This document shows positions 13,753 to 37,422 of a stretch of 64,000 nucleotides of DNA, in pieces. Both the position numbers and the translations under genes were made by a program. Position 1 is the stretch's first letter; each line of letters opens with the position of its first letter. The DNA comes from Verrucomicrobiota bacterium (GTDB lineage: Bacteria > Verrucomicrobiota > Verrucomicrobiia > Limisphaerales > MWDV01). The notes beneath the pieces are model-generated. The model ran no database searches. It saw only the letters and a program-made list of their open reading frames with translations, and had not been told where the DNA came from. The stretch lies in contig DAONTI010000010.1 of the NCBI GenBank assembly GCA_035411585.1, positions 47,370 through 111,369 on the forward strand, read 5' to 3'.

Positions 13753-15728
13753 ATCCCACTTTCAGGTCCGGTCCGATCATCAGGGCCCGGTTCATCTTGT
13801 TGTGTTTGGTGCTGGCCGCCATCCCGGGTCTGGCGCAGTTGCTGATTTATGAAGACTTCAATTACGAGCGCCGGCAGGGGTTTGTCAGCGCCGCCATTCC
13901 GGGCGAGGGCATAGATGGATTAAATGGCGGGGTGGGTTTCGCCGGTCCGTGGACCACCACCGGAAATTACTTTTCCGGCATCCCAGTTGGTCCCGGAGAT
14001 TACGGTGCGGGGGTCACTTACGGAAATCCGCTTGGCGCGCGCCTGGCCCCGCTGGCCTACAGTGACGGATTCGGCAACCATCTGGTCACCCGGGGACACC
14101 AACTGCGCACGGCCTTCGGCAACCATTCGCGCGAAGTCCGGCGCCTGGCGTCCCCTGTGGGCGGATGCGGAAACACGCTGTGGATGAGTTTTCTGGCGCA
14201 AGCCCACGGGCTGGCCGGCACCTCACGCTACGCCTTCGTGGAACTCGCCAACGCCGACGGCAACGCCATCCGTCTCGGCAACGTCACCCCCGTCTCCTCC
14301 GGGCAATGGGGAGTGCAGGTGTTGAACAGTGGCGGTGGTGCGCCATCGGCCGACTTGGGATTGCCCATGGACGTCCCGACCTTGTTCCTGGCCCGGTTGG
14401 CATATCCGCCAACGCCTGGCGATCCCGCCCGGCTCGCGGTTTGGCTCAACCCGCACAATCTGGTTCATGAAAAGGCGCTGCCCGCGCCGATCATTGAATG
14501 GGATTTTGCACCGGTCGCCTTTGACCAGTTGAGCGTGGCTGGGCGTTACTCCACAGATTTCGATGAGTTGCGTCTCGGCACCCGCTTTGACGCAGTGACG
14601 CCAACGCAACCCGCGCCGGTCGGCGATGCCTGCCTGACCACCGAACGCGACGGTCAGAATCTCCGGCTCAGTTGGCCCGAAGCCTACACCGATGGGTTGG
14701 TGCCACAGGTCTCCCTCGATTTGCAGGAATGGCAGCCGCTGCCCTTGCCGCTAGAGCGCACCAACGGCCAATGGCGGCTGACCGTGCCTCTCGATGGCCA
14801 GCAGCGGTTTTTCCGATTGCATTATCCCGCGCCGGGACCGTCGCGACCGCGGCTCGCCACCCTCGAAGCCACCGGCTGGCAGCCGCAGGAGGTCCGCGCC
14901 GGACTCGTGTATTACGAACGGCAGTTGACCAATTTGTTGGGCAGTCCACAGGTGGTGAACGTGCTGGCGCTCGACCTCGACCACCCCGGCTTGCGTCTCG
15001 AACTGACCGCGATGGATGTCTGGGGGCTTTCCCGCGTTACCGTGCCGGTGCTGGCCGAACATGCCGGCGCGGTCGCGGCTATCAACGGCGGGTTCGGCAC
15101 CGCCCGCACGTTTTCCGAAGTGGGTTACGGCATCATGATTTTTCGCGGGATTGTCTGGCCTTTCGTCAACGATCCCGATTTCCACGAACTCTACGAAGCG
15201 CATGGGCGCAATGCCGTGGGAATTGACGCCGCCGGGGAGTGGCACTTTGCCTCGCGCGGCGCGGAAGGTTGGGAAGTGGGCGCGCGTTGGCCGACGAACT
15301 GGCCGGGCATGGTGCAGGCCATGGCGGGCGGCAGCCAATTGGTGCGGGCCGGTGCGGTCCATCCGTTGGTGGTGCCGGCCACGACGCGCGGGGCGTACCT
15401 CTCGCACAGTGGTTTGCATGACTTGACCTTCAATCGAAATCCGCGTACCGCCATCGGCATCACCAATCATCGGATCGCGGTGCTGGTGACGGTGGCCGGC
15501 CGTTTTCCGGGCATTGCGGAGGGCATGACCTTGCAGGAGATGGCGGAATTGATGTTGTTCATGGGCTGCCGCGACGCCCTCGAACTCGACGGTGGGGGAT
15601 CCTCCACCATGTGGATCGGCCAGCCGCCTTTCGACGGAGTGGTGAATTACCCGACTGACAACGGCCAGTTTGATCACGATGGCCTGCGTTCCCTGCGCTT
15701 GGCCGTCTTAATCATGGAGACGGATTAA
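13749..15728 (+). CDS. fusion protein: LamG-like N-domain (paralog of 10598..11530) + internal FFRL beta-sandwich + phosphodiester glycosidase domain (paralog of 11845..12828)
   Basis: The start ATG at 13749 overlaps the EEP stop (ATGA). Signal peptide MNPTFRSGPIIRARFILLCLVLAAIPGLAQ. The N-domain LIYEDFNYE..GVGFAGPWT..AVWLNPHNL..DFDELRLGTRFDAV aligns along its length with the PEP-CTERM protein. The middle contains ..LRLSWPEAY..QQRFFRLHYP. The C-terminal part has AINGGFG, MAGGSQLVRAG and PRTAIGITNHRIAVLVTVAGR..ALELDGGGSSTMWI. Confidence 0.85.
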   Translation: MNPTFRSGPIIRARFILLCLVLAAIPGLAQLLIYEDFNYERRQGFVSAAIPGEGIDGLNGGVGFAGPWTTTGNYFSGIPVGPGDYGAGVTYGNPLGARLAPLAYSDGFGNHLVTRGHQLRTAFGNHSREVRRLASPVGGCGNTLWMSFLAQAHGLAGTSRYAFVELANADGNAIRLGNVTPVSSGQWGVQVLNSGGGAPSADLGLPMDVPTLFLARLAYPPTPGDPARLAVWLNPHNLVHEKALPAPIIEWDFAPVAFDQLSVAGRYSTDFDELRLGTRFDAVTPTQPAPVGDACLTTERDGQNLRLSWPEAYTDGLVPQVSLDLQEWQPLPLPLERTNGQWRLTVPLDGQQRFFRLHYPAPGPSRPRLATLEATGWQPQEVRAGLVYYERQLTNLLGSPQVVNVLALDLDHPGLRLELTAMDVWGLSRVTVPVLAEHAGAVAAINGGFGTARTFSEVGYGIMIFRGIVWPFVNDPDFHELYEAHGRNAVGIDAAGEWHFASRGAEGWEVGARWPTNWPGMVQAMAGGSQLVRAGAVHPLVVPATTRGAYLSHSGLHDLTFNRNPRTAIGITNHRIAVLVTVAGRFPGIAEGMTLQEMAELMLFMGCRDALELDGGGSSTMWIGQPPFDGVVNYPTDNGQFDHDGLRSLRLAVLIMETD

Positions 15729-22389: not shown

Positions 22390-23616
22390 ATGACCTCGCG
22401 CGAACGCATCCTCACGGCTTTGAACCACCAGGTCCCCGACCGGGTGCCGGTGGATTTCTCAGGACACCGGTCCTCCGGCATCGCCGCCATGGCGTACGCG
22501 CGGTTGCGCGAATTTCTCGGTCTGCCCCGGAAACCGATCCGGGTTTATGATCCGGTGCAGCAACTGGCCATTGTGGACGAGGATGTGTTGACGCGCTTCC
22601 GCGTGGATACCATCGAACTGGGCCGCGCGTTCGCCCGTGAAGATCATTGGTGGACCGAATGGACATTGCCCGACGGGACGCCGTGTCTCATGCCCGTCTG
22701 GGCGAAACCCGAGTGGGTGGCGGACGAATGGGTGTTGCGCTCCGCCCGCACGGGACGCGTCATTGCGCAGATGCCCGATGGCGTCTGGTATTTCGAGCAG
22801 GCGCATTTTCCGTTCCTGGAACACGAAGACTTGGACCAGCTCGAAGCCGAATTCTCCGAGTGCATGTGGTCGGCGGTGGCTTCGCCGCCCGGGCCCATCG
22901 TCGCCGGGCCGGACGGCGCTGAACGCCTGTCCGCGGGGGCGCGGCAATTGCGGGCGGAAACCGATCGCGCCATCATCGGCTTGTTCGGTGGCAACCTGCT
23001 CGAACTGGGCCAGTGGTTCTATCGCAACGACCAATTTTTCATGCTGCTCGCCGCCGAGCCGGAGCGGGCGCACGCGTTTCTGGAACGGCTCACCGAAATT
23101 CACCTGCGCCAACTGGAACGCTTCGCCCGCGCGGTCGGGGGACACATTGACCTCATCCTGTTCGGCGACGATCTGGGCATGCAAAAAGGTCCGCAGATTT
23201 CACCGGCGATGTATCGCGAATTTTTCCAACCGCGCCAGCAACGTCTCTGGCGGCGCGCCCGGGAACTGATCCCCGCCCGCATCATGCTGCATTGCTGCGG
23301 CGGGGTGCGGGAGTTGTTGGACGGGTTGATTGAAGCCGGGTTGGAGGCCATCAATCCCGTGCAAATCACCTGTCGCGGCATGGACCCCGCCGGGTTGAAA
23401 CGCGACTTTGGCCACCGGTTGACGTTTTGGGGCGGGGGCTGTGACACGCGGGACATGCTCAGTCACGGCACGCCGGCGCAAATCCGGGAGCATGTCCGCC
23501 GGTTGGTGGACCTGTGGCGCCCCGGCGGAGGCTTCGTTTTCCAGCAGGTCCACAACATCCTGGCGGATGTGCCTCCGGAAAACATCGTGGCCATGTTCGA
23601 TGCCGTGAATGAGTGA
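22390..23616 (+). CDS. uroporphyrinogen decarboxylase (URO-D) family protein
   Basis: N-terminal MTSRERILTALNHQVPDRVPVDF, and C-terminal ...IMLHCCGGVRELLDGLIEAGLEAINPVQ...FWGGGCDT...PGGGFVFQQVHNI. Both are typical of URO-D/MtaA-like TIM-barrel proteins often found in PVC carbohydrate loci. Confidence 0.8.
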   Translation: MTSRERILTALNHQVPDRVPVDFSGHRSSGIAAMAYARLREFLGLPRKPIRVYDPVQQLAIVDEDVLTRFRVDTIELGRAFAREDHWWTEWTLPDGTPCLMPVWAKPEWVADEWVLRSARTGRVIAQMPDGVWYFEQAHFPFLEHEDLDQLEAEFSECMWSAVASPPGPIVAGPDGAERLSAGARQLRAETDRAIIGLFGGNLLELGQWFYRNDQFFMLLAAEPERAHAFLERLTEIHLRQLERFARAVGGHIDLILFGDDLGMQKGPQISPAMYREFFQPRQQRLWRRARELIPARIMLHCCGGVRELLDGLIEAGLEAINPVQITCRGMDPAGLKRDFGHRLTFWGGGCDTRDMLSHGTPAQIREHVRRLVDLWRPGGGFVFQQVHNILADVPPENIVAMFDAVNE

Positions 23617-23847
23617 ACCCCGGACCGCCGGCCCAGGAAAGTATCCAATCACCCGGCAAGCTAGGCATTGCTTGATGAATAAATATGCGGCATGTTGCCC
23701 TTGACGGAAAACGATTTTCCGGGCAGGATGGGCCGCGAACATGAACAAATTTTTTGTCCGTGAACAACCAAAACACAGTGTAACCAGCACGTAATCACAT
23801 CGTTGAATCCGATCTTCCAGACACAACCGCAACCATACTCATACCAC

Positions 23848-24657
23848 ATGACCTGTTCTCCCTACTTACGTCGGCGCCGGTCGGCGTTCACCTTGATTGA
23901 ATTACTAGTGGTCATTGCGATTATTGCCATCCTGGCGGCCATGCTGTTGCCCGCCTTGGCCAAGGCCAAGGAAAAGGCCAAACGGCTGGGTTGCTTGAAC
24001 AACTGCAAACAACTCGGCTTGGGCAGCCTGTTGTACGCGGCGGACAATGAGGGGCATCTGGCCGGCCACACGTGGAATTGGAATTCCGGGTATTATAATA
24101 CCGCCTTGGGACAGATCAGGAGCGGTCTAAGTGACCGGGACGGGCGGGACGATGACATGAACTGGCTGTGGCCGACCTATGTGAAGAATGGCGTGGGCGG
24201 CGCGGGGCAGAGCAGTTATGTCTGTCCGGCCACGCGGAATGCGGTATCCACCAACCTCATACGGGATACGGTGGCCGGAGTGGATAAATTGCAACAACTC
24301 TGTGACAATGCCCGGACGCCCAAGGACACCCGGGGCCATAGTTATGAGTGTTTCGGGAATCTGACCGGCTCCCGGAAAAAGACCGAGCAAGCGGTGGCCG
24401 GCTGGACGATCATCAACTACAGGCAGGCGCTGGGCATCAAGCCGGGGGCCTCGCAGATTTTCCTGATCACCGACGCGGATGATGTCCCGGAGCCCGGCAT
24501 CGGCGACAACGAGAATTATCCGGATCCAATGGACAACCACGGTGCGCTCGGCCAGAATGTGGTGTTTTGTGACGGCCATGCCGAATTTGTGAAGCAGAAC
24601 CGCTGGCTCCACGTTTGGAACCTTTCCCACGACTCCAACCATACCAAGGGCGATTAA
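23848..24657 (+). CDS. prepilin-type N-terminal cleavage/methylation domain protein (pseudopilin-like)
   Basis: [52 protein letters not shown]. Shares [26 protein letters not shown] and [19 protein letters not shown] with 9812..10570. The ORF is open from 23803. Confidence 0.9.
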
Positions 24658-24714
24658 ACCATAACCACGGCAATCGAAATTACACCAAAAACCAAACACA
24701 AACCCCAAGGACCA

Positions 24715-27700
24715 ATGAAGAACACCAAGAACACACTCCTCACGCGCCTCCGCCGAGGCGCTCGTCTGTCATCCGGGTTGCTCCGGGTTCCGGCCGTGCT
24801 CACGGCTGTAGCGATGGCGCTGACCCTGCTCTGGCCGGCCGCCACCCAGGCGGCGCGGGTCCATCACGGCGTTGCCGCCGCAAATCTCCAAGTGGATCAG
24901 ATCTATTACCCGGATGAAAACGGGCAATGGCCGGATCCGCTGACCAACGAAAACACCAACGCCCTGGTAACCACGCTGTTGAGCATCAATGATTTCCGGG
25001 CGATTACCTCGGATTGGTACACCAACGCGGTGGACGAGTTTGGCGTCCCGACTTCCTGGCATCAATGGTGGAACCGGGCCGATTATCAAATTCAAATCGG
25101 CCCCACCCGGGGCGACGATATCACGGGGGGCGTCATGATGGCCGCCGTGGCGCAGAACGGGCGGAACAACTACGGCGTCACCCGTTATCCGGTTTGCGCC
25201 GTCCATGATGGCTGGCGCATTTGCACGTTCGCCAACAATCACGATGATCCCCTGATCAAGGCGGGCGACGGCTATGAATACAACGTCAACGTGGCGGGCG
25301 CGTGGTTCCCGTATCCAGATTACATCGGGGCCCTCGTGCGCAACAGCGAACGTAAAAACGGGCAGACCAATGACATGTTGATTGGCCACTCGAGCTTGGT
25401 GCTGGGCCAGCATTTCTATTGGTGGGCGAACGGACGGTTCATCGTGGACTTGCGCGACTTGGGTTTTGACTCGCGGACTGACGGGGTCATGATCACCACC
25501 CACGGCAAAGACGAGCAAAACTTCGCGCTGAGTCAGATCAACACCACCAACGGCACATGGACGCTCTACACGAAGGACATGTCGCAGCCGACCTACGGCA
25601 ATTTTGAGCAGGATCCGGTGGCGTTTGTGTTCATTCCCAAGACCAACACCATGCTGATTTCAGGCATGTTCAATGGCGACGGGAGCATCGTGATACACAG
25701 CGGCGACACCCCGCAATTCACCGTACGCCCCAAGAGCGACGTCGGCGCGGGACGCTGGGAGTTGAAAATCCCGGGTCATTCCCCGGCCTCCGGTGTGCTG
25801 ATTATTTCCGCCTGCGCGGGGGGTACCCTGAACACGGATAACATCGTCAGTTACGAACCGGACGGCGACGGTTGGGAAATCCAATCGCGGGACACGCCGG
25901 GCATGGGCTTGCAAACGCCGAAAGGAAATCTGGGCGAACCGGAACCGGTGTGCACGTTTGTCTTTATTCCGGCACCGACGCCCGGAATCACGGTCACGCC
26001 GACCAATAACCTCGTGACCAGCGAGGATGGTGGGACGGCGCAGTTCACGGTGGAATTGGACTTCAAACCGACGGCGGACGTGACGATTGGCGTCAGTTCC
26101 AGCAACCCCGCCGAAGGCGTGGTGGACGTGACTTCCCTGACCTTCACCCCGAATAATTGGAACATCCCGCAAGTGGTGACCATTACCGGACAGGATGATG
26201 CGGTGGCCGACGGCCAGGTGGCGTACACCATCGTTCTGGCCAAGGCGGTGAGCGCGGATCCCCAGTATCATGACATGAAACCGGCCGATGTGGCGGTTCT
26301 CAACGCGGACAACGAAGCCGGGATTACCGTCAGCAAGAACTGGTTGGTGACGACCGAAGCGGGCGGCACGGACAGTTTCACCGTGGTGTTGAATACCGCG
26401 CCCACGGCGGACGTAACGATTGGCCTGGCCTCCAGTGATGTGGGCGAAGGCACCGTCTTCCCGGCCAGCCTGGTCTTCACGCCAGACAATTGGAACATTC
26501 CCCAAACCGTCACCGTGACCGGCGTGGACGATGTGGTGGACGACGGCGATGCGCCCTACGCCATTGTTTTTGCGGCGGCCGTGAGCGCCGACGCGGCGTA
26601 TAACGGGGTGAAAGGCGCGGACGTGCCCGCCCTCAATCTGGATAACGACGAGGCGGGTATTATTGTTACACCGCAAGAGTTGACGGTGAGCGAAACGGGC
26701 ACGACGGCCAACTTCACGGTGGTGCTCGGGACGCGGCCGACGGCGGATGTGGTGATCAGCTATGTTTCCGGCGATCCGACCGAAGGCGTGGTGACACCGG
26801 CCAGCCGGACGTTCACCCCCGATAACTGGAATACGCCTCAAACCTTTACGGTGACCGGCGTGGATGACGCTGAAAATGACGGCGACATCACCTACAACCT
26901 GCAAGGGTCGGTGACGTCGAGCGACGCCGTTTATGCGGCGATGATTCCGGCCCCGATCTTGGTGACCACCTTGGACGACGAGGCGGAACTGGCGCTCCCG
27001 TCCGGCCCGGTTCAATACGGCATTGGCACGACCGGGATTGGCCTGGATGGCTGGGCCACTCTGACGGATTCCGTCGCCAATTACAACGGCGGCAATCTGA
27101 CGGTGGTGGTGACCAACAATGGCTCCGCCGATGACCGGTTGACTCTGCGGAATGAAGGCGTGGAGGAAGGCCAGGTGGGCGTCTCCGGCGCCAATGTCAC
27201 CTACAGTGGCATCCCGGTTGGCACCCTGGCGGGCGGCGAAGGTTTGACGCCGCTGGTGGTGACCTTCAACAACGCGGTGACGCCGGCGGTGGCGCAGGCG
27301 CTCGTCCGGGCGGTCACCTTTAGCAACGTGGCCGAGGAACCGTCGCTGGCGGACCGGACGGTCACCGTCATCGTCAACCGGGGCGCCGGTTCGAGCGCCG
27401 CGGAGAAACTGGTGCATGTGGGCTTGGTCCGGGTCACCCATTTCCAAGAGGGCGCGGACCATGGTTACGGCGTGTACACCGGCGCGCAGAATAACAACCT
27501 GTGGGCGCTCAATGAGGGGACGGCCTATCCGGAAGGATCTCATGCGGATGGACTGGCCATTGGCTTCGCGGGAGTGCAAATGTTGGATCGCGCCATCCTG
27601 TTGCGGTTTGACGATATCATCGGGGAGGGCCCCGGCCAGATTCCGCCCAACGCCACGATTGTTTATGCGGAGTTTCAGTTCTTCGTGTCCAACAACGGTG

Positions 27701-28887
27701 ACGGCAGCCCGATGTACCGGATGTTGATTCCGTGGACGGCGGAATGGGAAAGCTGGGGCTCCTTGGGGGATGGGGTGCAGTTGGATGACTCCGAGGCGCG
27801 CAGCACTTGGGATTCCGCCATTGGCGTTCCCAATCTCACCGGTTCGACTGGCACCGGCCGCAAATCCGTTGCGGTGACGGCCGACGTGCAAGCTTGGGCG
27901 AACGGCGAAGACAACTACGGCTGGTACCTGCCTGGCTGGGATCCTTCCGGCTGGAGCGGAAACTGGGACTTCTGGGCGATTGCCCCGTCCCAGCATGAGG
28001 ACATCACCCGGCGGCCTTCGCTGCTGGTGAAGTGGGTACCGGAAGGCACGTTGGCAACCAGCTTCCGCTACGGTGTCAACGATTACACGGCCACCTACGA
28101 CAGCCGGGTCCGGAGTGGGCGTTATGCCGATGAAGACGGATCTACAGCGATCGCGCTCTTCCCGGATTGGGAAATCAACACCGAGGCCGATGACCGGGAT
28201 ATCGGCTTGATCCGGTTCGAGGAGATCATTGGTGAGGAAGCCGATCAGGTGCCGCCGGGGGCGACGATTCACTCGGCGCAGTTGGACATCGCCGCCTTCC
28301 AGTCGAACTCGCCGGGCAACGGGTTCTATCTGCATTACATGCTCCAGCCGTGGAATGACACGGATACGTGGAACATGCTGGGCGATGGCGTGCAAGCCGA
28401 CGGCGTGAAGGCGGCGGTCACGCCGACCGCAATCCTGCGGGACTTCAGCACCGCCATTATACCTTACGTGCCGGGTGGGTATCACTCGCTGGAGGTGAGG
28501 CCGGATGTGCAGGCCTGGGCCTACAAACAACGGCCGAACTATGGTTGGGTCGTTCTGCCGTTCGAGTTCGGACGGGATGGATTCGGCTTCGGAACGGCGG
28601 AACACACTGATGTGGAACGGCGGCCGCAACTGCGGGTGTTCTACTCGCCGGGCGAAATTCCCGAGCCGGAAGACATCACGTTGACCCTGCCGGTGTGGAG
28701 CCCGTCGCAAGTGGTGGTCGGCTTCAACGCCAAGGCCAACACCACCTACACGGTACAACGGGTGGGGCAACTGGGTGATGCCTGGCAAACCATTGGCCAG
28801 GCGATGACCGACGGCGATGGCCACGGGAATTACGAAGACAAGTCGCCCTTGGCGGGTGCGGCGTTCTATCGCGTCGTATTGCCGTAA
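24715..28887 (+). CDS. giant secreted protein (1390 aa): novel N-domain + 3 Calx-beta-like repeats + 2 DNRLRE-like modules + C-terminal FYRV domain
   Basis: Has a signal peptide. The N-terminal roughly 380 aa are paralogous to those of 29205..32288 and 41889..45296 (HHGVAA..., AWFPYP, DPVAFVFIPKTN, WEIQSRDTPGMGLQTP, CTFVFIPAP). Three ~110-aa repeats follow (GITVTPTNNLVTSEDGGTAQFTV...). The protein ends AAFYRVVLP. Confidence 0.9.
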   Translation: MKNTKNTLLTRLRRGARLSSGLLRVPAVLTAVAMALTLLWPAATQAARVHHGVAAANLQVDQIYYPDENGQWPDPLTNENTNALVTTLLSINDFRAITSDWYTNAVDEFGVPTSWHQWWNRADYQIQIGPTRGDDITGGVMMAAVAQNGRNNYGVTRYPVCAVHDGWRICTFANNHDDPLIKAGDGYEYNVNVAGAWFPYPDYIGALVRNSERKNGQTNDMLIGHSSLVLGQHFYWWANGRFIVDLRDLGFDSRTDGVMITTHGKDEQNFALSQINTTNGTWTLYTKDMSQPTYGNFEQDPVAFVFIPKTNTMLISGMFNGDGSIVIHSGDTPQFTVRPKSDVGAGRWELKIPGHSPASGVLIISACAGGTLNTDNIVSYEPDGDGWEIQSRDTPGMGLQTPKGNLGEPEPVCTFVFIPAPTPGITVTPTNNLVTSEDGGTAQFTVELDFKPTADVTIGVSSSNPAEGVVDVTSLTFTPNNWNIPQVVTITGQDDAVADGQVAYTIVLAKAVSADPQYHDMKPADVAVLNADNEAGITVSKNWLVTTEAGGTDSFTVVLNTAPTADVTIGLASSDVGEGTVFPASLVFTPDNWNIPQTVTVTGVDDVVDDGDAPYAIVFAAAVSADAAYNGVKGADVPALNLDNDEAGIIVTPQELTVSETGTTANFTVVLGTRPTADVVISYVSGDPTEGVVTPASRTFTPDNWNTPQTFTVTGVDDAENDGDITYNLQGSVTSSDAVYAAMIPAPILVTTLDDEAELALPSGPVQYGIGTTGIGLDGWATLTDSVANYNGGNLTVVVTNNGSADDRLTLRNEGVEEGQVGVSGANVTYSGIPVGTLAGGEGLTPLVVTFNNAVTPAVAQALVRAVTFSNVAEEPSLADRTVTVIVNRGAGSSAAEKLVHVGLVRVTHFQEGADHGYGVYTGAQNNNLWALNEGTAYPEGSHADGLAIGFAGVQMLDRAILLRFDDIIGEGPGQIPPNATIVYAEFQFFVSNNGDGSPMYRMLIPWTAEWESWGSLGDGVQLDDSEARSTWDSAIGVPNLTGSTGTGRKSVAVTADVQAWANGEDNYGWYLPGWDPSGWSGNWDFWAIAPSQHEDITRRPSLLVKWVPEGTLATSFRYGVNDYTATYDSRVRSGRYADEDGSTAIALFPDWEINTEADDRDIGLIRFEEIIGEEADQVPPGATIHSAQLDIAAFQSNSPGNGFYLHYMLQPWNDTDTWNMLGDGVQADGVKAAVTPTAILRDFSTAIIPYVPGGYHSLEVRPDVQAWAYKQRPNYGWVVLPFEFGRDGFGFGTAEHTDVERRPQLRVFYSPGEIPEPEDITLTLPVWSPSQVVVGFNAKANTTYTVQRVGQLGDAWQTIGQAMTDGDGHGNYEDKSPLAGAAFYRVVLP
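25984..26985 (+). repeat. three tandem coding repeats (336+336+330 nt) of a Calx-beta-like adhesin module
   Basis: The repeats start at 25984 (GITVTPTNN), 26320 (GITVSKNWL) and 26656 (GIIVTPQEL). Each contains TADVTIG/TADVVIS, (L/R)TFTP(N/D)NWN(I/T)PQ.(V/F)T(I/V)TG.DD and a ..Y.. acidic end. Confidence 0.85.
27421..28655 (+). repeat. two tandem ~205-aa coding modules resembling DNRLRE-type carbohydrate-binding/accessory domains
   Basis: Matched motif pairs: LLRFDDIIGEGPGQIPPNATI / LIRFEEIIGEEADQVPPGATI; YRMLIPWTAEWESWGSLGDGVQ / HYMLQPWNDTDTWNMLGDGVQ; ADVQAWANGEDNYGW / PDVQAWAYKQRPNYGW; RRPSLLVKW / RRPQLRVFY. Confidence 0.7.
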
Positions 28888-28921
28888 TCATCATCCGATT
28901 GGGTAATATGGGTTGGTTCAA

Positions 28922-28951
28922 GTGCGGGACGGCGTCACGGCCGTCCCGCAC
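28922..28951 (+). terminator. hairpin terminator candidate downstream of the 1390-aa gene
   Basis: Perfect 12-bp stem GTGCGGGACGGC / GCCGTCCCGCAC with a 6-nt loop, 35 nt after the stop. It is followed by CCTTCTC, which is only a weak U-tract. Confidence 0.5.
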
Positions 28952-29204
28952 CCTTCTCGGGAAGCGAGGCGTCCGGCCTCGGGCGCCTCACAGAATCGCG
29001 AACCGTAGGGCGGTTGGTTCGCGTCTCCACTCATGACCGACCGGCGATTCTCGCTCCCCCGCACCGGGCTGTGCGCCAAAGCGCAAAGGAGCGGGCGTTG
29101 GATTCAAAAAGGCCCCTTGGGGCGGTTGGGCTGGAGGGTTCCCGTCGGCCCGGATTGAATGAGGGGCGATGAAGGACGGGTGATGTTTGCTTCGGTTCTT
29201 CCAG

Positions 29205-32200
29205 ATGACAGATATGCAAAAAGTTGATTTGAGTTGCCGGCGCTTGGGCAGTCGGTGCGCAGGTAGATTTCCGCATTTTTGGGGTTGGATGATCCTGGCC
29301 GCTTTGGCGGTGGGAGGTATCCCGTCCGCCGCCCAGGCGGGGCACGGCGTGGCTGCCGGGCATTTGCGCGTTATTCAGTTGGACGTGGGCGACACCACCA
29401 ATTCGGTGCGCGTCATTCCCACCCTGCGGATCAATGATTTTCGGCTGCGCGACGGCTCGAACCGCGGCGATTACCCGGTGCAGATCGGCCTGGCGGCGGC
29501 GGACGATGTGGCGACCGGAGTCTTGATTTCTTCCGTGGCCGAGAATGGGCGCTACAACTTTGGCACGAACAATTTTCCCATCAGCGCGGTTCACGTGGGG
29601 GCGACGGATTATCGGATTTCCACGTTTGTGCGGACAGCGGCGGTCGCCGATGCGGGGGCGGAGTATAACGTCAACGTGGCGGCGGCGTGGTTTCCCTACG
29701 ACCGCTTTTGGGGCGGCACCGCCCGCAACGCCTCCGGGTTGGATGGCGGTACCAACAATTTACTGGTCGCCTCGCCGGGATTGGTTTTGGGCCACCATTT
29801 CAAAGGGGTGGCCGCCGGGCGGTCGGTGGTGGATTTGCGGAGCTTCGGCATTGACGCGCGCACGGACGGCGTGTTGCTCGTCAATGGCGGCAAGGACGAG
29901 AACAACTTCGCGCTGTCGCAGGTCAACACCAACGACGGCACCTGGAACGTGTTCGTCAAAGATAACGCGACGCCGACGGCGAGCCAGTATGAACAGGATC
30001 CGGTGGCGTTCGTGTTCATTCCCAAGACCAACACGGCGTTGATTTCCGGGCGGTTCAACGGGGATGGCAGCATTGCCCTGTTCAGCGGCGCGGCGCCGGC
30101 GTTTACGGTCAGCAACCTGGCCGCGGGCCGCTGGGACCTCCGGATTCCCGGCCATTCCCCCCGGGCGGGCATTTTGATTATTTCCGCCGAGGGGGGCGGG
30201 CATTACAACCTGGATAACATCGTCAGTTATCAAATCAACGAGGCGGGCAACGGCTGGGAAATCCAATCCCGGGACACGCCCAACAACGGCTTGCAGACGC
30301 CCGTGGGATCGGGTGGGGAACCGGAGGCGGTTTGCTCGTTTGTCTTTATTCCCGCGGCGGCGCCGTTGTTGGTGTCGCCGGCCAATGGCGCGCCGAATCA
30401 GGCGTTGCCCCAGTTGCAAACGGTGCTGTTCAACGCGGCGCCGGGGGACCTGACCGTGACGGTTTACGGCGGCGAAGCGGCCACGCCGCCGGCCGGGCCG
30501 GACTTCACGGTGGTCGTGCTGCCGGATTCGCAAAACTACACGGATGAACGCAACGGCGCGAAGAAAGAGATGTGGTTTGCCCAGTGCGAATGGATTATCA
30601 CCAACCGGCTCTCCCGCAACATCGCTTACGTCGCCCACCTGGGGGACATCAGCCAGACGGGCGACGTCAAAGGTGGTCGCCCCAATCTCGCCGAATGGCG
30701 CAATGCGACCAACGCAATGTATCGCCTGGAAAACCGGGTGCGGACCGAACTGGCCGAAGGCGTCCCCTATGGCCTGGCGGTGGGTAATCATGATCAGACC
30801 CCGCGCGGAGATCCCTTGGGGACCACGATTTTCTACAACCAATACTTTGGCATCTCCCATTTTCTGGGGCGCACCTATTACGGCGGATATTACGGCACGA
30901 ACAACAACAATCATTATGATTTGTTCAGCGCCAGCGGCTTGGATTTCATTGTGTTGTATTTCGAATACGACATGGACGCCAACCCGGCGGTGCTGGCCTG
31001 GGGCAACGAGGTCCTGCAGGCCTATGCCGACCGGCAGGCCATTGTGGTCACGCACTACATGGGCAGCGCCACGACCCCCAGCACCTTCAGCGCGCAGGGG
31101 GCCGCCATTTACAATACGCTCAAAGGCAATCCGAATCTGGCCTTGTTGCTCGGCGGCCACGTTGCTGGTCCGGGAGGCATCGGTGAAGGTTCCCGCGAGG
31201 ATCATTACGGCGGCAACACTGTTCGCACATTGATCTCGAATTATCAATTCCGCACCAACGGCGGCAACGGCATGTTGCGGCTCATGGAATTTTCGCCCAG
31301 CAACAACACGGTGGTCGTGCAGACCTATTCGCCCTGGTCGGATGAATACGAAACCGACGAGGACAGCGAGTTCTTTTTCACGCGCAACCTGCAGCCGCCG
31401 GGCGGCACGGGTTCCCCCGGCACACCGTTCACCGTGTTGACGACGCAAACAGGAGTGGCGCCCGGCAGCCTGGTGAATCTGACTTGGCCGGGGTTGCGGC
31501 CCGATCGCACCTATCAATGGTATGTCACCGTCACCGATGCAGCGGGGAATACGACCGTGGGGGAAACCTGGCGTTTTACCACCGTGCCCAACTCCCCGCC
31601 ACGGGCCAGCAACCAACTGGTGACCATTGAAGGCGACGCGCCGGCCCCCCTGACGTTGCGCGGATCGGATCCCAACGGCGACGCCATCACTTTTGGTTTG
31701 TTCGCACCGCCCTCCCAAGGGGCGATCACCGAGTTGAATACCAACGCCGGGACTTTGACTTACTATCCCGTCCGGGGCTACCGGGGCCCTGACCGGTTTA
31801 CCTACCGGGCGTATGACGGGCGCACCAACAGCAGCATCGCCACGTTCAACCTCATCATCACCGCGCCGGCGGATACCAACGCCAATGGCTTGCCGGATGC
31901 CTGGGAGGCCGCGTACGGCATCACCGATCCGGACGCCGATGACGATCGCGACGGGCACTCTAATCGCGACGAATACCGGGCCAACACCAATCCCACCAAC
32001 GCCGCTTCGGCTTTGCGGATTACCGGGATGACCCGGCAACCCGACGGACATTTTGACTTTGCGTGGGCGTCCGTGGGCGGCACCCGGTACCGGGTGCAGT
32101 TCACCGATGCGCCTGACCCCGCGGGGCTGGCGGGTGGATTCACTGATGTCGTTCGGGCCCTGACCAACGAGATGGATTTGGGGCCGTACGGAATCATGAG

Positions 32201-32288
32201 CACCCAAAGGTTTACGGATGATTTCACCCTGACCGGGGGCGCGCCCACGAATCAAAGCCGGTATTACCGGGTCCGGGTGGTGCCGTGA
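29205..32288 (+). CDS. giant secreted metallophosphoesterase: novel N-domain + calcineurin-like phosphoesterase + cadherin/Ig-like + TSP3-like Ca-binding segment + C-terminal YYRV domain
   Basis: The N-domain is paralogous to the other two giants. MPE motifs: VVVLPDSQ, HLGDIS, VGNHDQ, VVTHY, LGGHVAG. The acidic segment reads NGLPDAWEAAYGITDPDADDDRDGHSNRDEYRANTNP. The protein ends SRYYRVRVVP. ATG 29205 was chosen; TTG 29187 and ATG 29289 are alternatives. Confidence 0.9.
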   Translation: MTDMQKVDLSCRRLGSRCAGRFPHFWGWMILAALAVGGIPSAAQAGHGVAAGHLRVIQLDVGDTTNSVRVIPTLRINDFRLRDGSNRGDYPVQIGLAAADDVATGVLISSVAENGRYNFGTNNFPISAVHVGATDYRISTFVRTAAVADAGAEYNVNVAAAWFPYDRFWGGTARNASGLDGGTNNLLVASPGLVLGHHFKGVAAGRSVVDLRSFGIDARTDGVLLVNGGKDENNFALSQVNTNDGTWNVFVKDNATPTASQYEQDPVAFVFIPKTNTALISGRFNGDGSIALFSGAAPAFTVSNLAAGRWDLRIPGHSPRAGILIISAEGGGHYNLDNIVSYQINEAGNGWEIQSRDTPNNGLQTPVGSGGEPEAVCSFVFIPAAAPLLVSPANGAPNQALPQLQTVLFNAAPGDLTVTVYGGEAATPPAGPDFTVVVLPDSQNYTDERNGAKKEMWFAQCEWIITNRLSRNIAYVAHLGDISQTGDVKGGRPNLAEWRNATNAMYRLENRVRTELAEGVPYGLAVGNHDQTPRGDPLGTTIFYNQYFGISHFLGRTYYGGYYGTNNNNHYDLFSASGLDFIVLYFEYDMDANPAVLAWGNEVLQAYADRQAIVVTHYMGSATTPSTFSAQGAAIYNTLKGNPNLALLLGGHVAGPGGIGEGSREDHYGGNTVRTLISNYQFRTNGGNGMLRLMEFSPSNNTVVVQTYSPWSDEYETDEDSEFFFTRNLQPPGGTGSPGTPFTVLTTQTGVAPGSLVNLTWPGLRPDRTYQWYVTVTDAAGNTTVGETWRFTTVPNSPPRASNQLVTIEGDAPAPLTLRGSDPNGDAITFGLFAPPSQGAITELNTNAGTLTYYPVRGYRGPDRFTYRAYDGRTNSSIATFNLIITAPADTNANGLPDAWEAAYGITDPDADDDRDGHSNRDEYRANTNPTNAASALRITGMTRQPDGHFDFAWASVGGTRYRVQFTDAPDPAGLAGGFTDVVRALTNEMDLGPYGIMSTQRFTDDFTLTGGAPTNQSRYYRVRVVP

Positions 32289-32405: not shown

Positions 32406-33905
32406 ATGAAAACAGGCGAACCGAAGAAACGAGCAGACGCCGTGGGGGCGTTGACGGATGGCGTGTATGACGTGTTGGTGGTGGGCGGCGGCATTGTGGG
32501 CGCCGGGGTGGTGCGCGACGCGGCGCTCCGCGGGCTGAAGGTGGCGTTGGTGGAGCAGCGGGATTTTGCGTTTGGCACGAGCAGCCGGTCGAGCCGGTTG
32601 TTGCACGGCGGCTTGCGGTATCTGGCGCAAGGCCGGGTGGGCTTGGTGCATGAGGCGAGCGTGGAGAAAAAGGTGGTCCACCGCATCGCGCCGCACCTGG
32701 CGGACCCGTTGCCGTTCATCTTCCCGACCTACCGGGGCAACCGGCATTGGGTGCTTTGGCAGTTGAAGATCGGCGTCAAAATTTACGACCTGCTGTGCGG
32801 CGGACGGAATCTGGGGAAATCAACGTGGTTGAGCCGGGCGGAGGTGCTGAAGACGGTGCCGGAGTTGTCGCCGGTGAACTTGAACGGGGCGGTGCGGTAT
32901 TACGATGGCCTGACCAATGACGCGCGCCTGACCCTGGATACGCTGCGGTCGGCGGCGAAGGGCGGAGCGGTGGTGGTCAACTACTGCCGGTTTGTGGATG
33001 CGACCCGGGGGGAACACTGGACCTGCACGGTAACCGACCAATTGACGGGGCGGAACCTGACCGTGAAGACGCGGGCGGTGGTGAATGCCACCGGGCCGTG
33101 GGCGGACGGGTTGCCGCACAGCCGGGTCAAACTGCGGGCGACCAAGGGAATCCACCTGGTGGTGGACCGGGCCCGCGTGCCGGTGCCGGACACGGTGGTG
33201 ATGACGGAGGAGAAACGAATCCTGTTTGCGATTCCGTGGGGTGAACGGACGATTTTGGGCACCACCGACACGGATTACCACGGCTCACTGGACCGGGTCC
33301 TGGCGGACGCGGAGGACATCCGTTATGTGCTGGGGGTGACGAACCAGTTTTTCCCGGGCGCGAAATTGCAGGCCGGGGACGTGATCAGCGCATGGGCCGG
33401 GTTGCGGCCGTTGATCGCGGATCCGAAGGGCAAACCCTCGGACATCTCGCGCTCGCACGAGATCAAAAATCCCGAACCGGGCTGGTGGGATGTGGCCGGC
33501 GGCAAGCTGACCACGTACCGGCTGATGGCGGAGCAGACGGTGGATCGGATCGTGCGTGAGCAAAAGCTGACTGCGCGGAAATGTGTGACGGCGACGGAAG
33601 CCTTGTTGCCGGAGGCGGAGGTGCGCGAGGTGAGCGGGATTTTGCCGCCGCCCATGGACCCGGCGGCCGTGAAGCATTATTGCGCGCAGGAATGGGCGGT
33701 GCATTTGGACGATGTCTTGTTGCGCCGGACCAGTTGGCACTATTACCAGACCGACATGGAAACCCAGGCCCCCCGGGTGGCGGAATGGATGGGCGAGGAA
33801 CTGGGATGGACGGCGGAACAGCGGGCGGCGGAACTGGCGGATTACCGCGTTGCCGTCGGTTTGGTGGAACCGCCCGCGAAGGCACCGGCTGGAGGCGCAG
33901 CTTGA
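32406..33905 (+). CDS. glpD: FAD-dependent sn-glycerol-3-phosphate dehydrogenase
   Basis: YDVLVVGGGIVGAGVVRDAALRGLKVALVEQRDFAFGTSSRSSRLLHGGLRYL is the GlpD N-terminal FAD fold and signature. At 499 aa the length fits. Confidence 0.9.
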   Translation: MKTGEPKKRADAVGALTDGVYDVLVVGGGIVGAGVVRDAALRGLKVALVEQRDFAFGTSSRSSRLLHGGLRYLAQGRVGLVHEASVEKKVVHRIAPHLADPLPFIFPTYRGNRHWVLWQLKIGVKIYDLLCGGRNLGKSTWLSRAEVLKTVPELSPVNLNGAVRYYDGLTNDARLTLDTLRSAAKGGAVVVNYCRFVDATRGEHWTCTVTDQLTGRNLTVKTRAVVNATGPWADGLPHSRVKLRATKGIHLVVDRARVPVPDTVVMTEEKRILFAIPWGERTILGTTDTDYHGSLDRVLADAEDIRYVLGVTNQFFPGAKLQAGDVISAWAGLRPLIADPKGKPSDISRSHEIKNPEPGWWDVAGGKLTTYRLMAEQTVDRIVREQKLTARKCVTATEALLPEAEVREVSGILPPPMDPAAVKHYCAQEWAVHLDDVLLRRTSWHYYQTDMETQAPRVAEWMGEELGWTAEQRAAELADYRVAVGLVEPPAKAPAGGAA

Positions 33906-33944
33906 TCCGGTTGTGAACGCGCGTTTACCCCCCGAAGACTGCCT

Positions 33945-35054
33945 GTGAGTCAGACCCGAGCTTCCACGGTTTCCTTCCTGGACAACTCCGCCCCTGCGGC
34001 GGAGCGGTCGGCGCGGTCCGAACCCGGGGCGATGATCGCCCGCCCGCCCCAGCGACCTTGGACGGACATCCCGGTGCGTTACTCGGATGAACAACTGCGT
34101 CTGGCGGCGCGCTTGTATTATCTGGATGGCCTGGGGCAAACCGAGGTGGCGAAATTCGTCAAAGTGTCCCAAGCGAAAGTGTCGCGGTTGCTGGCGTTGG
34201 CGCGGGAGCGCGGCATTGTGCGCATCTCGGTGGCGGAATATGAACCGCGCAACCTGGAGCTGGAACAGCAGATCTGCCAGAGATTCGGCCTGGCCGCCGC
34301 CGCTGTTTTCAAGACCGTGCCCGAAGCCACGCCGGAGGAAGCCCGACGGGCCGTCGGCCATTTTGGCGCGGCCTTTGCCGCCTCGTTGATCGCGCCCAAC
34401 AGCGTCGTGGCCATTGCCGGCGGCCGCACGATTCGGGAGTTGGTCTTGGGATTGCCCGAGGACAAGGCGCGACAGGTCACGGTGGTGCAGGCCATGGGGA
34501 GCATTGATTCCACCGTCAGCGCGGTGGACGCGCTGGAATTGGGCCGCACCCTCGCCTGGCGGATGGGCGGTTATTTTCTGACGTTGAACACGCCGGCATT
34601 CGTGCCGGACAAACGCACGCGCGACGCGTTTCTGGCGCTCCAGCAAATCCGTTCCGTCTGGCAACGTTTGGACGCGACGGATGTGGCCTTGGTGGGGATC
34701 GGCTCCTTGGACAACTCAGTGTTCGTGGATCGCGGGGTGCTGAGCGCCAACGATCTGGGCACCCTCAAGCGTTTGGGCGCGGTGGGCGAGATTTGCGGAC
34801 ACTTTTTTGACGCGGAAGGGTGCGAGTGTGATTCGCCGTGGCGCGACCGGGTGTTGAGCGTGGATTTGAATCAAGTGCGGCGCATTCCCCATGTGGTGGG
34901 CGTGGTGGTGGGCGCGGATCGCGCCGCGGCCATCGCCGCCGCCATCCGGGGTGGGTTGGTCAAGTCCTTGATCCTGGACGATGCCGGCGCCCGCTCGCTG
35001 CTCGCGCTTCCCAACGCGGTGTCCGGGGGAAAGCCGAATGGAATCTCGAAATGA
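33945..35054 (+). CDS. SorC/DeoR-type sugar-binding transcriptional regulator
   Basis: HTH segment LRLAARLYYLDGLGQTEVAKFVKVSQAKVSRLLALARERGIVRISV, followed by a sugar-phosphate-binding domain (AIAGGRTI..., VVGVVVGADRAAAIAAAIRGGLVKSLILD). The ORF starts at a GTG; ATG 34032 is an alternative. Confidence 0.85.
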   Translation: MSQTRASTVSFLDNSAPAAERSARSEPGAMIARPPQRPWTDIPVRYSDEQLRLAARLYYLDGLGQTEVAKFVKVSQAKVSRLLALARERGIVRISVAEYEPRNLELEQQICQRFGLAAAAVFKTVPEATPEEARRAVGHFGAAFAASLIAPNSVVAIAGGRTIRELVLGLPEDKARQVTVVQAMGSIDSTVSAVDALELGRTLAWRMGGYFLTLNTPAFVPDKRTRDAFLALQQIRSVWQRLDATDVALVGIGSLDNSVFVDRGVLSANDLGTLKRLGAVGEICGHFFDAEGCECDSPWRDRVLSVDLNQVRRIPHVVGVVVGADRAAAIAAAIRGGLVKSLILDDAGARSLLALPNAVSGGKPNGISK

Positions 35055-36061
35055 AAGGCCTTGCTGCAACACCGCGTAGTCGGACGCGCCCCCAGCGCTT
35101 GGTCCGGCTGGGATGGAGTGCCGGCATGGCCGGCGCGGCCCTGTTGCTCTACGCCTGCGCGGCGCCGACCCGGTCCGCACGCCAGACATCCGGGGAATGG
35201 ACGGTGCGCGGGCATCTGCCACGCCAGCAGTTTGTGGTGCAAAGCCATCGCGGCGCCGGTTTTTTGGCACCGGAGAACACGCTTGAGGCTTTTGAATTGG
35301 GATGGAAACTGGGCGCGTGGCCGGAAGCCGACGTGCGCACGACCAAGGACGGGGTGATCGTCGCTTTCCACGATGGCAATTTCAAACGGACGGTGAAAAA
35401 TCCCCCGCCGGAATTGGCCCGGAAAGGCGTGAAGGATGTCACCTTTGCCGAATTGTCCACACTCGACGTGGGCGGTTGGAAAGGCGACGCCTTTGTGGGC
35501 CGCCGGGTTTCCCGGCTCGCGGAGATATTCCAGCTCATGACCGGCCGGCCGGAGCGCATGTTGTATCTCGACATCAAACAGGTGAACCTGGCGCAATTGG
35601 CCGCCGAGGTGCGGGCCGAACGGGTGGTCAGCCAGGTGGTATTCACCAGTCCGAATTACCCGTTGATCCGCGAGTGGAAACGGCTGGTGCCGGAATCCAA
35701 GACCTTGTGCTGGTTGCGGGGACCGGAAACCAACATGACCCATCGCCTCGCGGAAATGCGGGCGTTGAACTACGCGGATTTAACCCAGGTGCAATTGCAT
35801 CTCCGGGCCAACACCAACCGCGCGTCGAGCGAACCGTTTGACATCTCCCGCGCCTTTGTGCGCGCGACCGGCGAGGAACTTCGCCGCTACGGAGTGACCT
35901 TCCAAGTGCTGCCGTGGGACCTGGCGGCGCCGGAAATTTACTGGCAATTGATGGACCTTGGCGTGATGGCTTTCGCCACGGATTATCCCGATATTGCCCT
36001 GCAAGCCGTGCGCGACTACTACGCCGGCCGCAACCGCAGCCCTGTTGATACCCGACCATGA
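35051..36061 (+). CDS. glycerophosphodiester phosphodiesterase (GDPD family), probable lipoprotein
   Basis: ATG 35051 overlaps the regulator stop (ATGA). Possible lipobox in AALLLYAC. The GDPD signature is VQSHRGAGFLAPENTLEAFELGWKLGAWPEADVRTTKDGVIVAFHD. Confidence 0.85.
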   Translation: MKGLAATPRSRTRPQRLVRLGWSAGMAGAALLLYACAAPTRSARQTSGEWTVRGHLPRQQFVVQSHRGAGFLAPENTLEAFELGWKLGAWPEADVRTTKDGVIVAFHDGNFKRTVKNPPPELARKGVKDVTFAELSTLDVGGWKGDAFVGRRVSRLAEIFQLMTGRPERMLYLDIKQVNLAQLAAEVRAERVVSQVVFTSPNYPLIREWKRLVPESKTLCWLRGPETNMTHRLAEMRALNYADLTQVQLHLRANTNRASSEPFDISRAFVRATGEELRRYGVTFQVLPWDLAAPEIYWQLMDLGVMAFATDYPDIALQAVRDYYAGRNRSPVDTRP

Positions 36062-37422
36062 TACCGCCCCCCCGCTCCCTCACTCTCGCGGAAGCCCTGC
36101 AATCCGCCCGTGAAACCCGCGCCCTGGAAATTGGGTCGGGAATCCTCGAGCAAACCCTGCGTCTGTATCGCGACCACTTCGGCGACCGCCCGGCGATGTT
36201 GGTGGCGGACGGCAACACCTACGCCGCCGCCGGACAACGGGTGGTCGAAGCCTTCCGCAAGGCGGGCCACCCGTTGCAGGATGCCTTCATCTTCCGGGCG
36301 CCCGATTTGTACGCGGAACATCGGTTCGTGACCGAACTGGAAGCCGCCTTGCAACCGCACCAGGCCATTCCCATCGCCGTGGGGAGCGGCACGATCAACG
36401 ACCTGACCAAGCTGGCGTCGCACCGCACCGGCCGTCCGTATCTGTGTGTGGCGAGCGCCGCTTCGATGGACGGATACACCGCGTTCGGCGCTTCGATCAC
36501 GTATCAAGGCGCGAAGCAAACCTTCCTGTGCCCGGCGCCGACTGCGGTGTTGGCGGACTTGGAGGTCATCTGCGCCGCACCGGGATTGATGAACGCGTGG
36601 GGTTACACTGATTTGCTCGCCAAAGTCACGGCGGGCGCTGATTGGATCGTGGCGGACGCGCTGGGCATTGAGCCGATTGACCCGCCGGCCTGGGCGATTG
36701 TGCAAGGCCGGTTGCGAGAAATGGTGGCGGATCCCGCCGGGGTGGCGGCGCGCAATCCCGAGGCGGTGGGACGGTTGGTGGAAGGGTTGATGCTCGGCGG
36801 TTTTGGCATGCAATCCTCCCGCTCCAGCCGGCCGGCTTCCGGCGCGGAACATCAGTTCAGTCATTTGTGGGACATGCAGCATCACACCCACAACGGAAAG
36901 ACCCCTTCCCACGGCTTCAAAGTCGGCATCGGCACGCTGGCGGTGGCGGCGCTGTATGAGTATCTGTTGGCGCAACCGTTGGACCAACTGGACGCGGCCG
37001 CGTGCGGCCGGCAATGGCCCGATGCGGAAACGTGGTGCCAACGCGCGCGGGAATGGCTGGGCGAGGGGGAACTGGCCGCCGGCGCGGCGAAGGAATTGCG
37101 CGCCAAGCACAGTCCGCCGGAGGCGCTCCAGGCGCAGATGGAACAGTTGCGTTCGCTCTGGCCGGAGTTGCGCGAGCAGTTGCGCGCCCAATTGATGCCG
37201 TTGGCGACGCTGCGGGAGATGTTGCGCACCGTGGGCGCGCCCACCGCGCCGGAGGAGATCGGCATCACCCGGGAACGATTGCGGCGAAGCTACTGGCAGG
37301 CGTATTGCATCCGGCGCCGGTTCACGGCGCTGGATCTGGCGGTCCGCACCGGATTGCTGGAGGCTGCGTTGGACCACATTTTTGGTCCCGCCGGCGTCTG
37401 GCCGATTGACGCGCGCGGTTAA
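36058..37422 (+). CDS. iron-containing alcohol dehydrogenase superfamily protein, sn-glycerol-1-phosphate dehydrogenase-like (AraM/EgsA clade)
   Basis: ATG 36058 overlaps the GDPD stop (ATGA). VGSGTINDLTK (nucleotide-binding glycine motif), SMDGY and SGAEHQFSHLWDM resemble the G1PDH/Fe-ADH_2 metal-site motifs as I remember them. At 454 aa it is longer than classical EgsA. Confidence 0.6.
   Translation: MIPPPRSLTLAEALQSARETRALEIGSGILEQTLRLYRDHFGDRPAMLVADGNTYAAAGQRVVEAFRKAGHPLQDAFIFRAPDLYAEHRFVTELEAALQPHQAIPIAVGSGTINDLTKLASHRTGRPYLCVASAASMDGYTAFGASITYQGAKQTFLCPAPTAVLADLEVICAAPGLMNAWGYTDLLAKVTAGADWIVADALGIEPIDPPAWAIVQGRLREMVADPAGVAARNPEAVGRLVEGLMLGGFGMQSSRSSRPASGAEHQFSHLWDMQHHTHNGKTPSHGFKVGIGTLAVAALYEYLLAQPLDQLDAAACGRQWPDAETWCQRAREWLGEGELAAGAAKELRAKHSPPEALQAQMEQLRSLWPELREQLRAQLMPLATLREMLRTVGAPTAPEEIGITRERLRRSYWQAYCIRRRFTALDLAVRTGLLEAALDHIFGPAGVWPIDARG

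Follow-up and report, generated by a model that had tools for sequence, protein, structure and literature searches.

In a 64-kb stretch of DNA from a Verrucomicrobiota bacterium (64,000 nt of contig DAONTI010000010.1, assembly GCA_035411585.1; hereafter the window), the prepilin-type gene pp2 (23848..24657, + strand) and the gene that follows it, cargo2 (24715..28887, + strand), whose 1390-aa product is predicted to have a signal peptide, constitute a conserved gene pair. Their orthologs lie adjacent in many lineages, regardless of the flanking genes and above the local background. Two other pairs in the window, pp1-cargo1 (cassette 1) and pp3-cargo3 (cassette 3), are conserved as well. Our preferred explanation, to which we assign a probability of roughly 45%, is that pp2 is a cargo-specific adaptor pilin, which would couple its partner proteins to a type-IV-filament or type II secretion system (T2SS)-like machine for export or display. 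A first-pass annotation of this DNA had proposed that each pilin-like protein is dedicated to the protein encoded downstream, for instance for its secretion, tethering or display on a fiber. Pairing was indeed found in all three cassettes, but it is not strictly one-to-one, as cassette 2 usually has three genes and the related gene 41889..45296 has no pilin-like neighbor, and the suggested roles are inferred.

Conservation of the pp2-cargo2 pair

The first scan of the sequence collection, with a full-length alignment of the pp2 subfamily, was driven by the N-terminal helix and therefore returned a broad sample of prepilin genes from the Planctomycetes-Verrucomicrobia-Chlamydiae (PVC) group (80 loci), which we kept as background. 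When the query for the metagenome scan was an alignment restricted to the globular domain, 80 loci were obtained, of which 56 were informative in that they contain at least 700 nt of downstream sequence. The N-terminal domain (N-domain) of cargo2 starts directly 3' of the pilin-like gene in 24 of these 56. In loci with complete sequence, the downstream proteins are full-length cargo2 orthologs of 1338-1423 aa that share 42-48% identity with cargo2. The distance between the two genes ranges from -40 to +78 nt, several of the pairs overlapping by 4 nt. Since the globular domains of the paired pilins are only 39-51% identical to that of pp2, the lineages involved are distant. The pilin-partner neighborhood as a whole is kept in dozens of distantly related Verrucomicrobiota. 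Because gene calling in GC-rich DNA sometimes gave a wrong start codon or strand, key adjacencies were re-checked by tblastn, independently of the gene calls. A word-indexed search with the N-domain of cargo2 yielded 19 short proteins only, all of them fragments of frameshifted long-read assemblies.

The two genes stay together in three different orders. Besides the order seen in the window, cargo2 precedes the pilin-like gene at four loci (L007, L111, L117 and L169), and the two genes are convergent in Methylacidimicrobium (L006). The adjacency persists though the flanking genes change from locus to locus. Loci picked through the cargo rather than the pilin (L166, L167 and L169) also have an adjacent pilin-like gene. 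The cassette usually consists of three genes, namely the pilin-like gene, cargo2 and a metallophosphoesterase paralog, with the third gene present in every locus that has enough sequence; its products best match those of 29187..32288 or 41889..45296 in the window (50-63% identity).

In the broad PVC sample, the downstream gene codes for at least 600 aa in 7 of 37 cases (19%) vs. 71 of 441 (16%) in the background (p = 0.64), indicating that the pairing is a property of certain subfamilies rather than of the prepilin family as a whole. The synteny emphasized in the first-pass annotation is thus upheld for specific subfamilies, in which adjacency exceeds random expectation, but not for PVC prepilin genes at large. 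Pairwise distances of pilins and cargo2 proteins are correlated across 14 loci (Mantel r = 0.73, p = 5e-4), which we take as a sign of co-inheritance only.

Cassettes 1 and 3

A neighbor-joining tree of the pilin-like proteins matches clades to cargo families: members of the pp2 clade pair with cargo2, and those of the pp1 clade with proteins of the cargo1 type. Cargo1 (7742..9772, - strand; 676 aa) has orthologs with 30% identity over the full length (about 740 aa aligned), which follow pp1-clade genes at two loci (L148 and L164), and other downstream neighbors in this clade share segments of cargo1. For cargo3 (46161..48281, - strand; 706 aa), three orthologs (46-54% identity) were picked regardless of any pilin, one of them, G4L39_03405, from the cultured Limisphaera ngatamarikiensis. 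All three have a pp3 ortholog (60-77% identity) located 116-137 nt upstream, and the genes around the pairs differ among the three loci.

The pp2 protein and its subfamily

pp2 codes for a 269-aa protein with a class III signal. Its leader extends from M1 to A13, with the cut predicted before F14 (RRRRSA/FTLIELLVV..., where the slash marks the cut), and it has all of the expected elements: a short basic leader, Gly or Ala (here Ala) at -1, Phe at +1, Glu at +5 and a hydrophobic stretch of about 20 residues. It matches PF07963 (N_methyl; E 5e-9, 35.7 bits against a cut-off of 21.2) and TIGR02532 (28 bits against 16.3). The first-pass annotation correctly described it as a prepilin-type protein and a close paralog of pp1 (9812..10570, - strand), the first gene of cassette 1. 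The two proteins are 50-52% identical over the full length, and both carry the motifs DRD..DDDM.WLWPTYV and GHSYE and a third, 12-residue motif. The likeness of pp2 to pp3 (48435..49259, - strand), a canonical DUF1559 / H-X9-DG prepilin-type protein, is confined to the N-terminal helix.

With the DUF1559 / H-X9-DG proteins of Planctomycetes, Verrucomicrobia and Lentisphaerae, pp2 shares the prepilin N-terminus, a CLNN.KQ.GLG segment, the C-terminal His...DG and the phyla of occurrence. While pp3 is a regular member of this family (29.9 bits over profile positions 2-124 of PF07596, also named SBP_bac_10), pp2 and pp1 differ from it in several respects. Only the beginning of the 268-position profile is matched, namely positions 2-29 by pp2, whose 22.6 bits fall below the cut-off of 23.3, and positions 2-54 by pp1 (32.8 bits). 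Ten residues separate His from Asp-Gly in pp2 and pp1, compared to nine in pp3 and its orthologs, as had been noted in the first pass, and the score against the H-X9-DG-CTERM profile (TIGR04294) is 18, below the cut-off of 19. The X10 spacing is a hallmark of the subfamily, given that N230, H231, D242, G243 and H244 are invariant in 25 homologs. R97, D101-D103, W106, C126, E167, K177-K178, D209 and D211 are also invariant, and the motifs DDDxxWL, G.SYE and KKTE are the subfamily's own. Among 1.84 billion representative proteins, this discrete subfamily comprises 345 clusters (50% identity) at E <= 1e-3 and 130 at E <= 1e-10, and the pp2 protein is present on contigs in 83 blocks of the sequence collection.

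The AlphaFold2 (AF2) model of pp2 consists of an N-terminal helix (residues 16-66) followed by beta-strands, with a mean predicted local distance difference test score (pLDDT) of 70; in the poorly modeled middle part, residues 80-160, it drops below 60. When the PDB was searched with pp2 by profile and by sequence, the pilin helix alone was matched. The invariant Asp, His and Glu residues of the globular domain may bind a metal.

The partner proteins and their common C-terminal domain

The secretion of cargo2 is predicted from its N-terminus, which is Sec-like, with a positive region, a hydrophobic stretch and the sequence ATQA/AR at the likely cut. This is followed by the all-beta N-domain (about residues 48-430, some 385 aa; 24856..26004, + strand), also present in the third gene of the cassette and in 41889..45296 (29316..30386 and 42021..43070, + strand). 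The N-domain is modeled well by AF2 (pLDDT 84, predicted template modeling score (pTM) 0.87), yet Foldseek found nothing similar to it in the PDB, and Pfam gave no match either; it may represent a new fold or a new arrangement of domains. Next come three Ig-like / Calx-beta-like repeats (about residues 431-765; 26005..27009, + strand) with weak matches to Calx-beta and fn3_6, each of which aligns to one segment of 41889..45296. The two DNRLRE-type domains (about residues 958-1109 and 1160-1312; 27586..28650, + strand; NF033679, E 1e-11) are 39% identical to each other (E 8e-23) in a direct pairwise comparison, which revealed repeats that a self-BLAST of cargo2 had missed.

The third cassette gene starts either at an ATG (29289..32288, + strand) or at a TTG (29187..32288) and codes for about 999-1033 aa. 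Its product combines the N-domain, a Metallophos region, Big_9/cadherin-like domains, a TSP3-like region and the C-terminal domain described below. The calcineurin-like phosphoesterase region (PF00149; 23.7 bits in a scan of this region by itself) and the cadherin-like Ig domains occur both here and in 41889..45296, and PDB profile and sequence searches with the metallophosphoesterase region returned no match. If ATG 29289 is the start, a non-coding gap of about 400 nt (28888..29288), in which no terminator-like site was seen, separates cargo2 from the third gene; the corresponding distance elsewhere ranges from -4 to 195 nt.

Although the enzymatic and binding domains of the partners differ, a C-terminal domain (CTD) is common to them. 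This FYRL CTD is beta-rich, about 80-95 aa long, and has a last strand of the form [FY][FY]R[LVI]; in cargo2 it forms the extreme C-terminus (about 80 aa, ending in AAFYRVVLP; 28651..28884, + strand). No Pfam or NCBIfam profile matches the domain. Six large, predicted secreted proteins of the window end in it, namely cargo1, cargo2, cargo3, the third gene product, the product of 41889..45296 (+ strand; 1135 aa), which has the N-domain and the metallophosphoesterase region, and a LamG-domain protein (4289..7078, - strand; 929 aa), whose gene comes next after cargo1 on the same strand. Elsewhere it is also found on otherwise unrelated downstream partners of 1431, 872, 792 and 1101 aa.

The association of the FYRL CTD with prepilin genes was tested in several ways. 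At the subfamily loci, the FYRL motif is present in 19 of 23 proteins encoded downstream of a pilin but in only 33 of 80 others (p = 7e-4; non-redundant, complete proteins with a minimum length of 500 aa). Compared with other proteins of this minimum length, those with the domain adjoin a prepilin gene 4-5 times more often, both in the subfamily sample (24/47 vs. 9/47, p = 0.002) and in the broad PVC sample (7/13 vs. 28/146, p = 0.009). The link is seen in Verrucomicrobiota, including loci labeled Akkermansia (L034). One clade of the subfamily (L154 and L161) has a gene for a small (125-133 aa), Cys-rich, lipoprotein-like protein downstream of the pilin-like gene, and in L161 this is followed by the gene for a 1101-aa FYRL-domain protein.

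A model for the cassette and its alternatives

pp2, cargo2 and usually the next gene form one conserved gene cassette. In our model, pp2 would have its class III signal peptide cut by a prepilin peptidase, and its N-terminal helix would then reside in the inner membrane or in a type-IV filament (a T2SS pseudopilus or a fiber like the type IV pilus, T4P) encoded elsewhere in the genome. The globular domain would bind the co-encoded, Sec-exported partners, most plausibly through their common FYRL CTD, and this coupling to the filament machine would allow them to cross the outer membrane or would hold them on the cell surface. For cassette 2, the partners would be a binding protein (cargo2, with its Ig-like repeats and DNRLRE domains) and a metallophosphoesterase, set amid genes for glycerophosphodiester catabolism.

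The closest match for the mechanism that we propose is provided by two pairs of a type IVb pilus minor pilin and its secreted partner, CofB-CofJ of enterotoxigenic Escherichia coli and TcpB-TcpF of Vibrio cholerae. In these, a pilin-like subunit is the docking site for a soluble protein from its own locus, which relies on the filament machine for its export. These systems have no sequence or domain relation to the pp2 cassette, however; they lie in complete pilus operons, and their soluble partners are small. Minor pilins of T4P and the PilY1/PilC tip proteins (the fimU-pilVWXY1E cluster, and the minor-pilin/PilY1 clusters of Myxococcus) provide another precedent, in that a large protein with a Sec signal is presented on the filament, and paralogous clusters with four or five pilin-like genes each have their own large protein. 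Here too, a pilin-like gene lies beside a gene for a large non-pilin protein with a predicted Sec signal, but there is one pilin-like gene per cassette, the partners include enzymes, and no pilus genes are nearby. Pfam and NCBIfam profiles detect neither the beta-propeller of PilY1/PilC nor a vWA domain in cargo1, cargo2 or cargo3.

In the T2SS, the tips of the pseudopilus are thought to contact folded periplasmic substrates, while cargo-specific pseudopilins are not a known feature of this system. The helix of pp2 matches the profiles of GspG and of GspH, the latter being part of the GspH-I-J-K tip, and the likeness is limited to the helix: against GspG (TIGR01710), pp2 scores 27.4 bits (cut-off 88.85) over residues 13-56 only, and no gsp genes are adjacent. 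The Verru_Chthon cassette (TIGR02596, TIGR02598-02600) likewise belongs to the Verrucomicrobia and combines prepilin-type proteins, three in its four genes, with a very large protein. The proteins of the window stay far below the cut-offs for its proteins A-D (22 vs. 70 bits for TIGR02596, and 16 vs. 256 for TIGR02599 with pp1 and pp3), matching in the helix only, and cargo2 does not match protein A of that cassette.

Several observations weigh against our reading. No secretin, ATPase, platform protein or prepilin peptidase was found among the genes of the window scanned with Pfam, and the annotated neighborhoods L001-L005, L167 and L171-L175 contain no gsp machinery genes. The residue at position -1 of the pp2 signal is Ala instead of the usual Gly. 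A Foldseek search of the PDB with the pp2 model gave no match at E < 2 and no pilin or pseudopilin, and the model itself is of only moderate confidence. Around a quarter of pp2-clade genes have no adjacent cargo2. The distance correlation is not significant in a 7-locus subset, where distances are saturated near 50%, and it could reflect co-inheritance alone. Finally, proteins with the FYRL CTD outnumber the pilin-like genes, and three of them in the window (29187..32288, 41889..45296 and 4289..7078) have no pilin directly 5', so that the domain cannot need a private pilin.

A wider version of our reading, which we regard as rather doubtful, is that the FYRL CTD and the DUF1559-type pilins together make up an undescribed sorting or display system of the Verrucomicrobiota, in which each paralogous pilin would be the receptor or adaptor for a set of CTD proteins, much as in the type IX secretion system (T9SS) or with PEP-CTERM and exosortase. 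The FYRL domain resembles the T9SS CTD in being a beta-rich module that forms the very end of secreted proteins with no other relation to each other, but it matches no T9SS or PEP-CTERM profile and has no transmembrane tail. The last 99 residues of cargo2 match no family at E <= 5, and the full partner proteins match no sorting domain of Pfam or NCBIfam at E <= 0.01. Such a system, if real, would explain the expansion of these pilin-like genes, of which there are tens or hundreds in a PVC genome.

Instead of contacting its partners, the pilin-like protein might be a membrane-anchored ligand binder that captures their substrate or products for uptake, in which case the pairing would reflect a shared pathway and shared regulation and no complex would exist. 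The model for this is the bindosome of Sulfolobus, where sugar-binding proteins with class III signals are assembled at the cell surface for nutrient uptake; these are archaeal proteins with a two-lobed fold that are linked to ATP-binding cassette (ABC) transporters. In keeping with this idea, Pfam gives DUF1559 a name of the binding-protein type (SBP_bac_10), the invariant acidic and His residues could form a ligand or metal site, and cassette 2 lies in a catabolic cluster. Glycerol-phosphate and phosphodiester catabolic genes follow it (32406..40223, + strand), coding for a GlpD-like DAO protein, a SorC-type regulator, a glycerophosphodiester phosphodiesterase (GDPD), an Fe-ADH_2 protein and two major facilitator superfamily (MFS) transporters. 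The block from the GlpD-like to the Fe-ADH_2 gene also follows the cassette in L174 and L175, with the MFS transporters located further downstream in the window, and L167 retains the GlpD-like and MFS genes. We nevertheless consider this explanation unlikely. The same globular domain pairs with unrelated partners (the cargo1 type, the cargo2 type, metallophosphoesterases only, and proteins of 872-1431 aa) that share only the FYRL CTD, and the pp3-cargo3 pair is kept while all the surrounding genes change. Moreover, no transporter gene is directly adjacent, the nearest being the MFS genes 13 kb downstream, and the pp2 model shows a long helix and a beta-sheet rather than a two-lobed alpha/beta fold. 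ZnuA/ABC-3 genes located 4 kb upstream of cassette 2 are not conserved with it.

More unlikely still is that the pilin-like protein is not a filament subunit but serves to process or mature the FYRL CTD, as a membrane-anchored, metal-dependent enzyme or a chaperone dedicated to this domain. Dedicated sorting enzymes do occur beside single targets, as in sortase or exosortase pairs, and PorU serves the CTDs of the T9SS. Sorting signals typically occupy such a position, as a conserved domain that ends secreted proteins of otherwise different make-up; the adjacency is near one-to-one, and the invariant R97, D101-103, C126, E167, D209, D211, H231, D242 and H244 would suit an enzyme. However, pp2 has a textbook pilin-type signal with Glu at +5, which is a feature of filament assembly; no likeness to a hydrolase or transpeptidase was found in Pfam, NCBIfam or the PDB, and pilin-like genes are fewer than the proteins bearing the domain. 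As for a chance or historical adjacency, in which abundant prepilin genes fall upstream of large genes without a functional link, the missing enrichment in the broad PVC sample and the frequency of large secreted proteins in the window (11 of about 40 genes) would agree with it, but it is effectively refuted, as about 30 distinct loci contain the specific orthologous pairs (40-60% identity), with three different gene orders and varied flanks among them, and as this holds for all three cassettes.

Genomic neighborhood and leader sequences

The window has a GC content of 61% and is rich in secreted glycoside hydrolases and phosphodiester-related genes, along with one sulfatase. Together with the catabolic block downstream of cassette 2, two other segments (11764..15728, and 45346..45921 on the - strand) have a phosphodiester theme, to which genes for a HAD hydrolase, an EEP phosphatase and a pair of NAGPA phosphodiester glycosidases also belong. 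At two other loci (L168 and L169), a PhoD, PF04185 phosphoesterase or glycerol-kinase-like gene lies near the related genes. Overall, the neighborhood may point to the harvest of phosphodiester-containing polymers.

Directly 5' of pp2 is a gene for a homolog of URO-D / MtaA-CmuA-like methyltransferases (22390..23616, + strand), which is not kept with the cassette in other lineages. Directly 5' of pp1, on the same strand, is a gene for a 310-aa PEP-CTERM protein (10598..11530, - strand), which shares 47% identity with the NAGPA protein 13746..15728 in the N-terminal part of the latter. The window thus contains two kinds of C-terminal tag, as this protein is present beside the FYRL proteins. The pilin-free paralog 41889..45296 is directly preceded by a tetratricopeptide repeat (TPR) gene (40692..41759, + strand), and TPR genes also adjoin such genes at three other loci (L166, L167 and L168), suggesting that this is another conserved partnership.

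The spacer between pp2 and cargo2 (24658..24714, + strand) is 57 nt long (A28 C20 G5 T4), with an AAGGA located 7 nt ahead of the ATG, and a terminator-like site was sought in it without success. Its length and sequence and the 1390-aa gene that follows agree exactly with the first-pass annotation, which had singled out its G-poor, C/A-rich composition. This composition is indeed rare, as only 43 of the 63,943 stretches of this length on the + strand are equally G-poor, but it is not specific to the cassette. Similar G-poor, CA-rich leaders precede pp2, cargo1, cargo3, 4289..7078 and several unrelated genes, the stretches at translation starts being located at 23788..23873, 24649..24745, 38798..38863, 51999..52076 and 57934..58010 on the + strand and at 7051..7107, 9728..9817, 11469..11554 and 48255..48342 on the - strand. 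The genes with such leaders mostly encode secreted proteins. A cassette-specific regulatory element was therefore rejected. Since the same type of leader precedes other genes, it is a general feature of translation starts here, suggesting that unstructured leaders with weak Shine-Dalgarno sequences are a habit of the source genome. The composition of the spacer has no bearing on the pilin-cargo interpretation.

Significance

In some PVC genomes, DUF1559-type proteins are the largest family of paralogs; in Planctopirus limnophila, where the family numbers 68 members and two of these are essential, their function was stated to be unknown (PMC10632474). We found no description of the pilin-cargo pairing or of the FYRL CTD in the accessible literature. 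The pairing suggests a testable role for this large family, namely that each pilin-like protein serves its own secreted partner, and it places the family in a testable context, with particular subfamilies locked to particular secreted proteins that share an undescribed CTD. Experiments are possible because one of the pairs occurs in the cultured L. ngatamarikiensis. If pp2 and its relatives are cargo-specific adaptors, they would represent a new route by which bacteria with two membranes export or display large enzymes and binding proteins. This bears on how substrates are handled by the Verrucomicrobiota, which are abundant polymer degraders of digesters, soils and guts.

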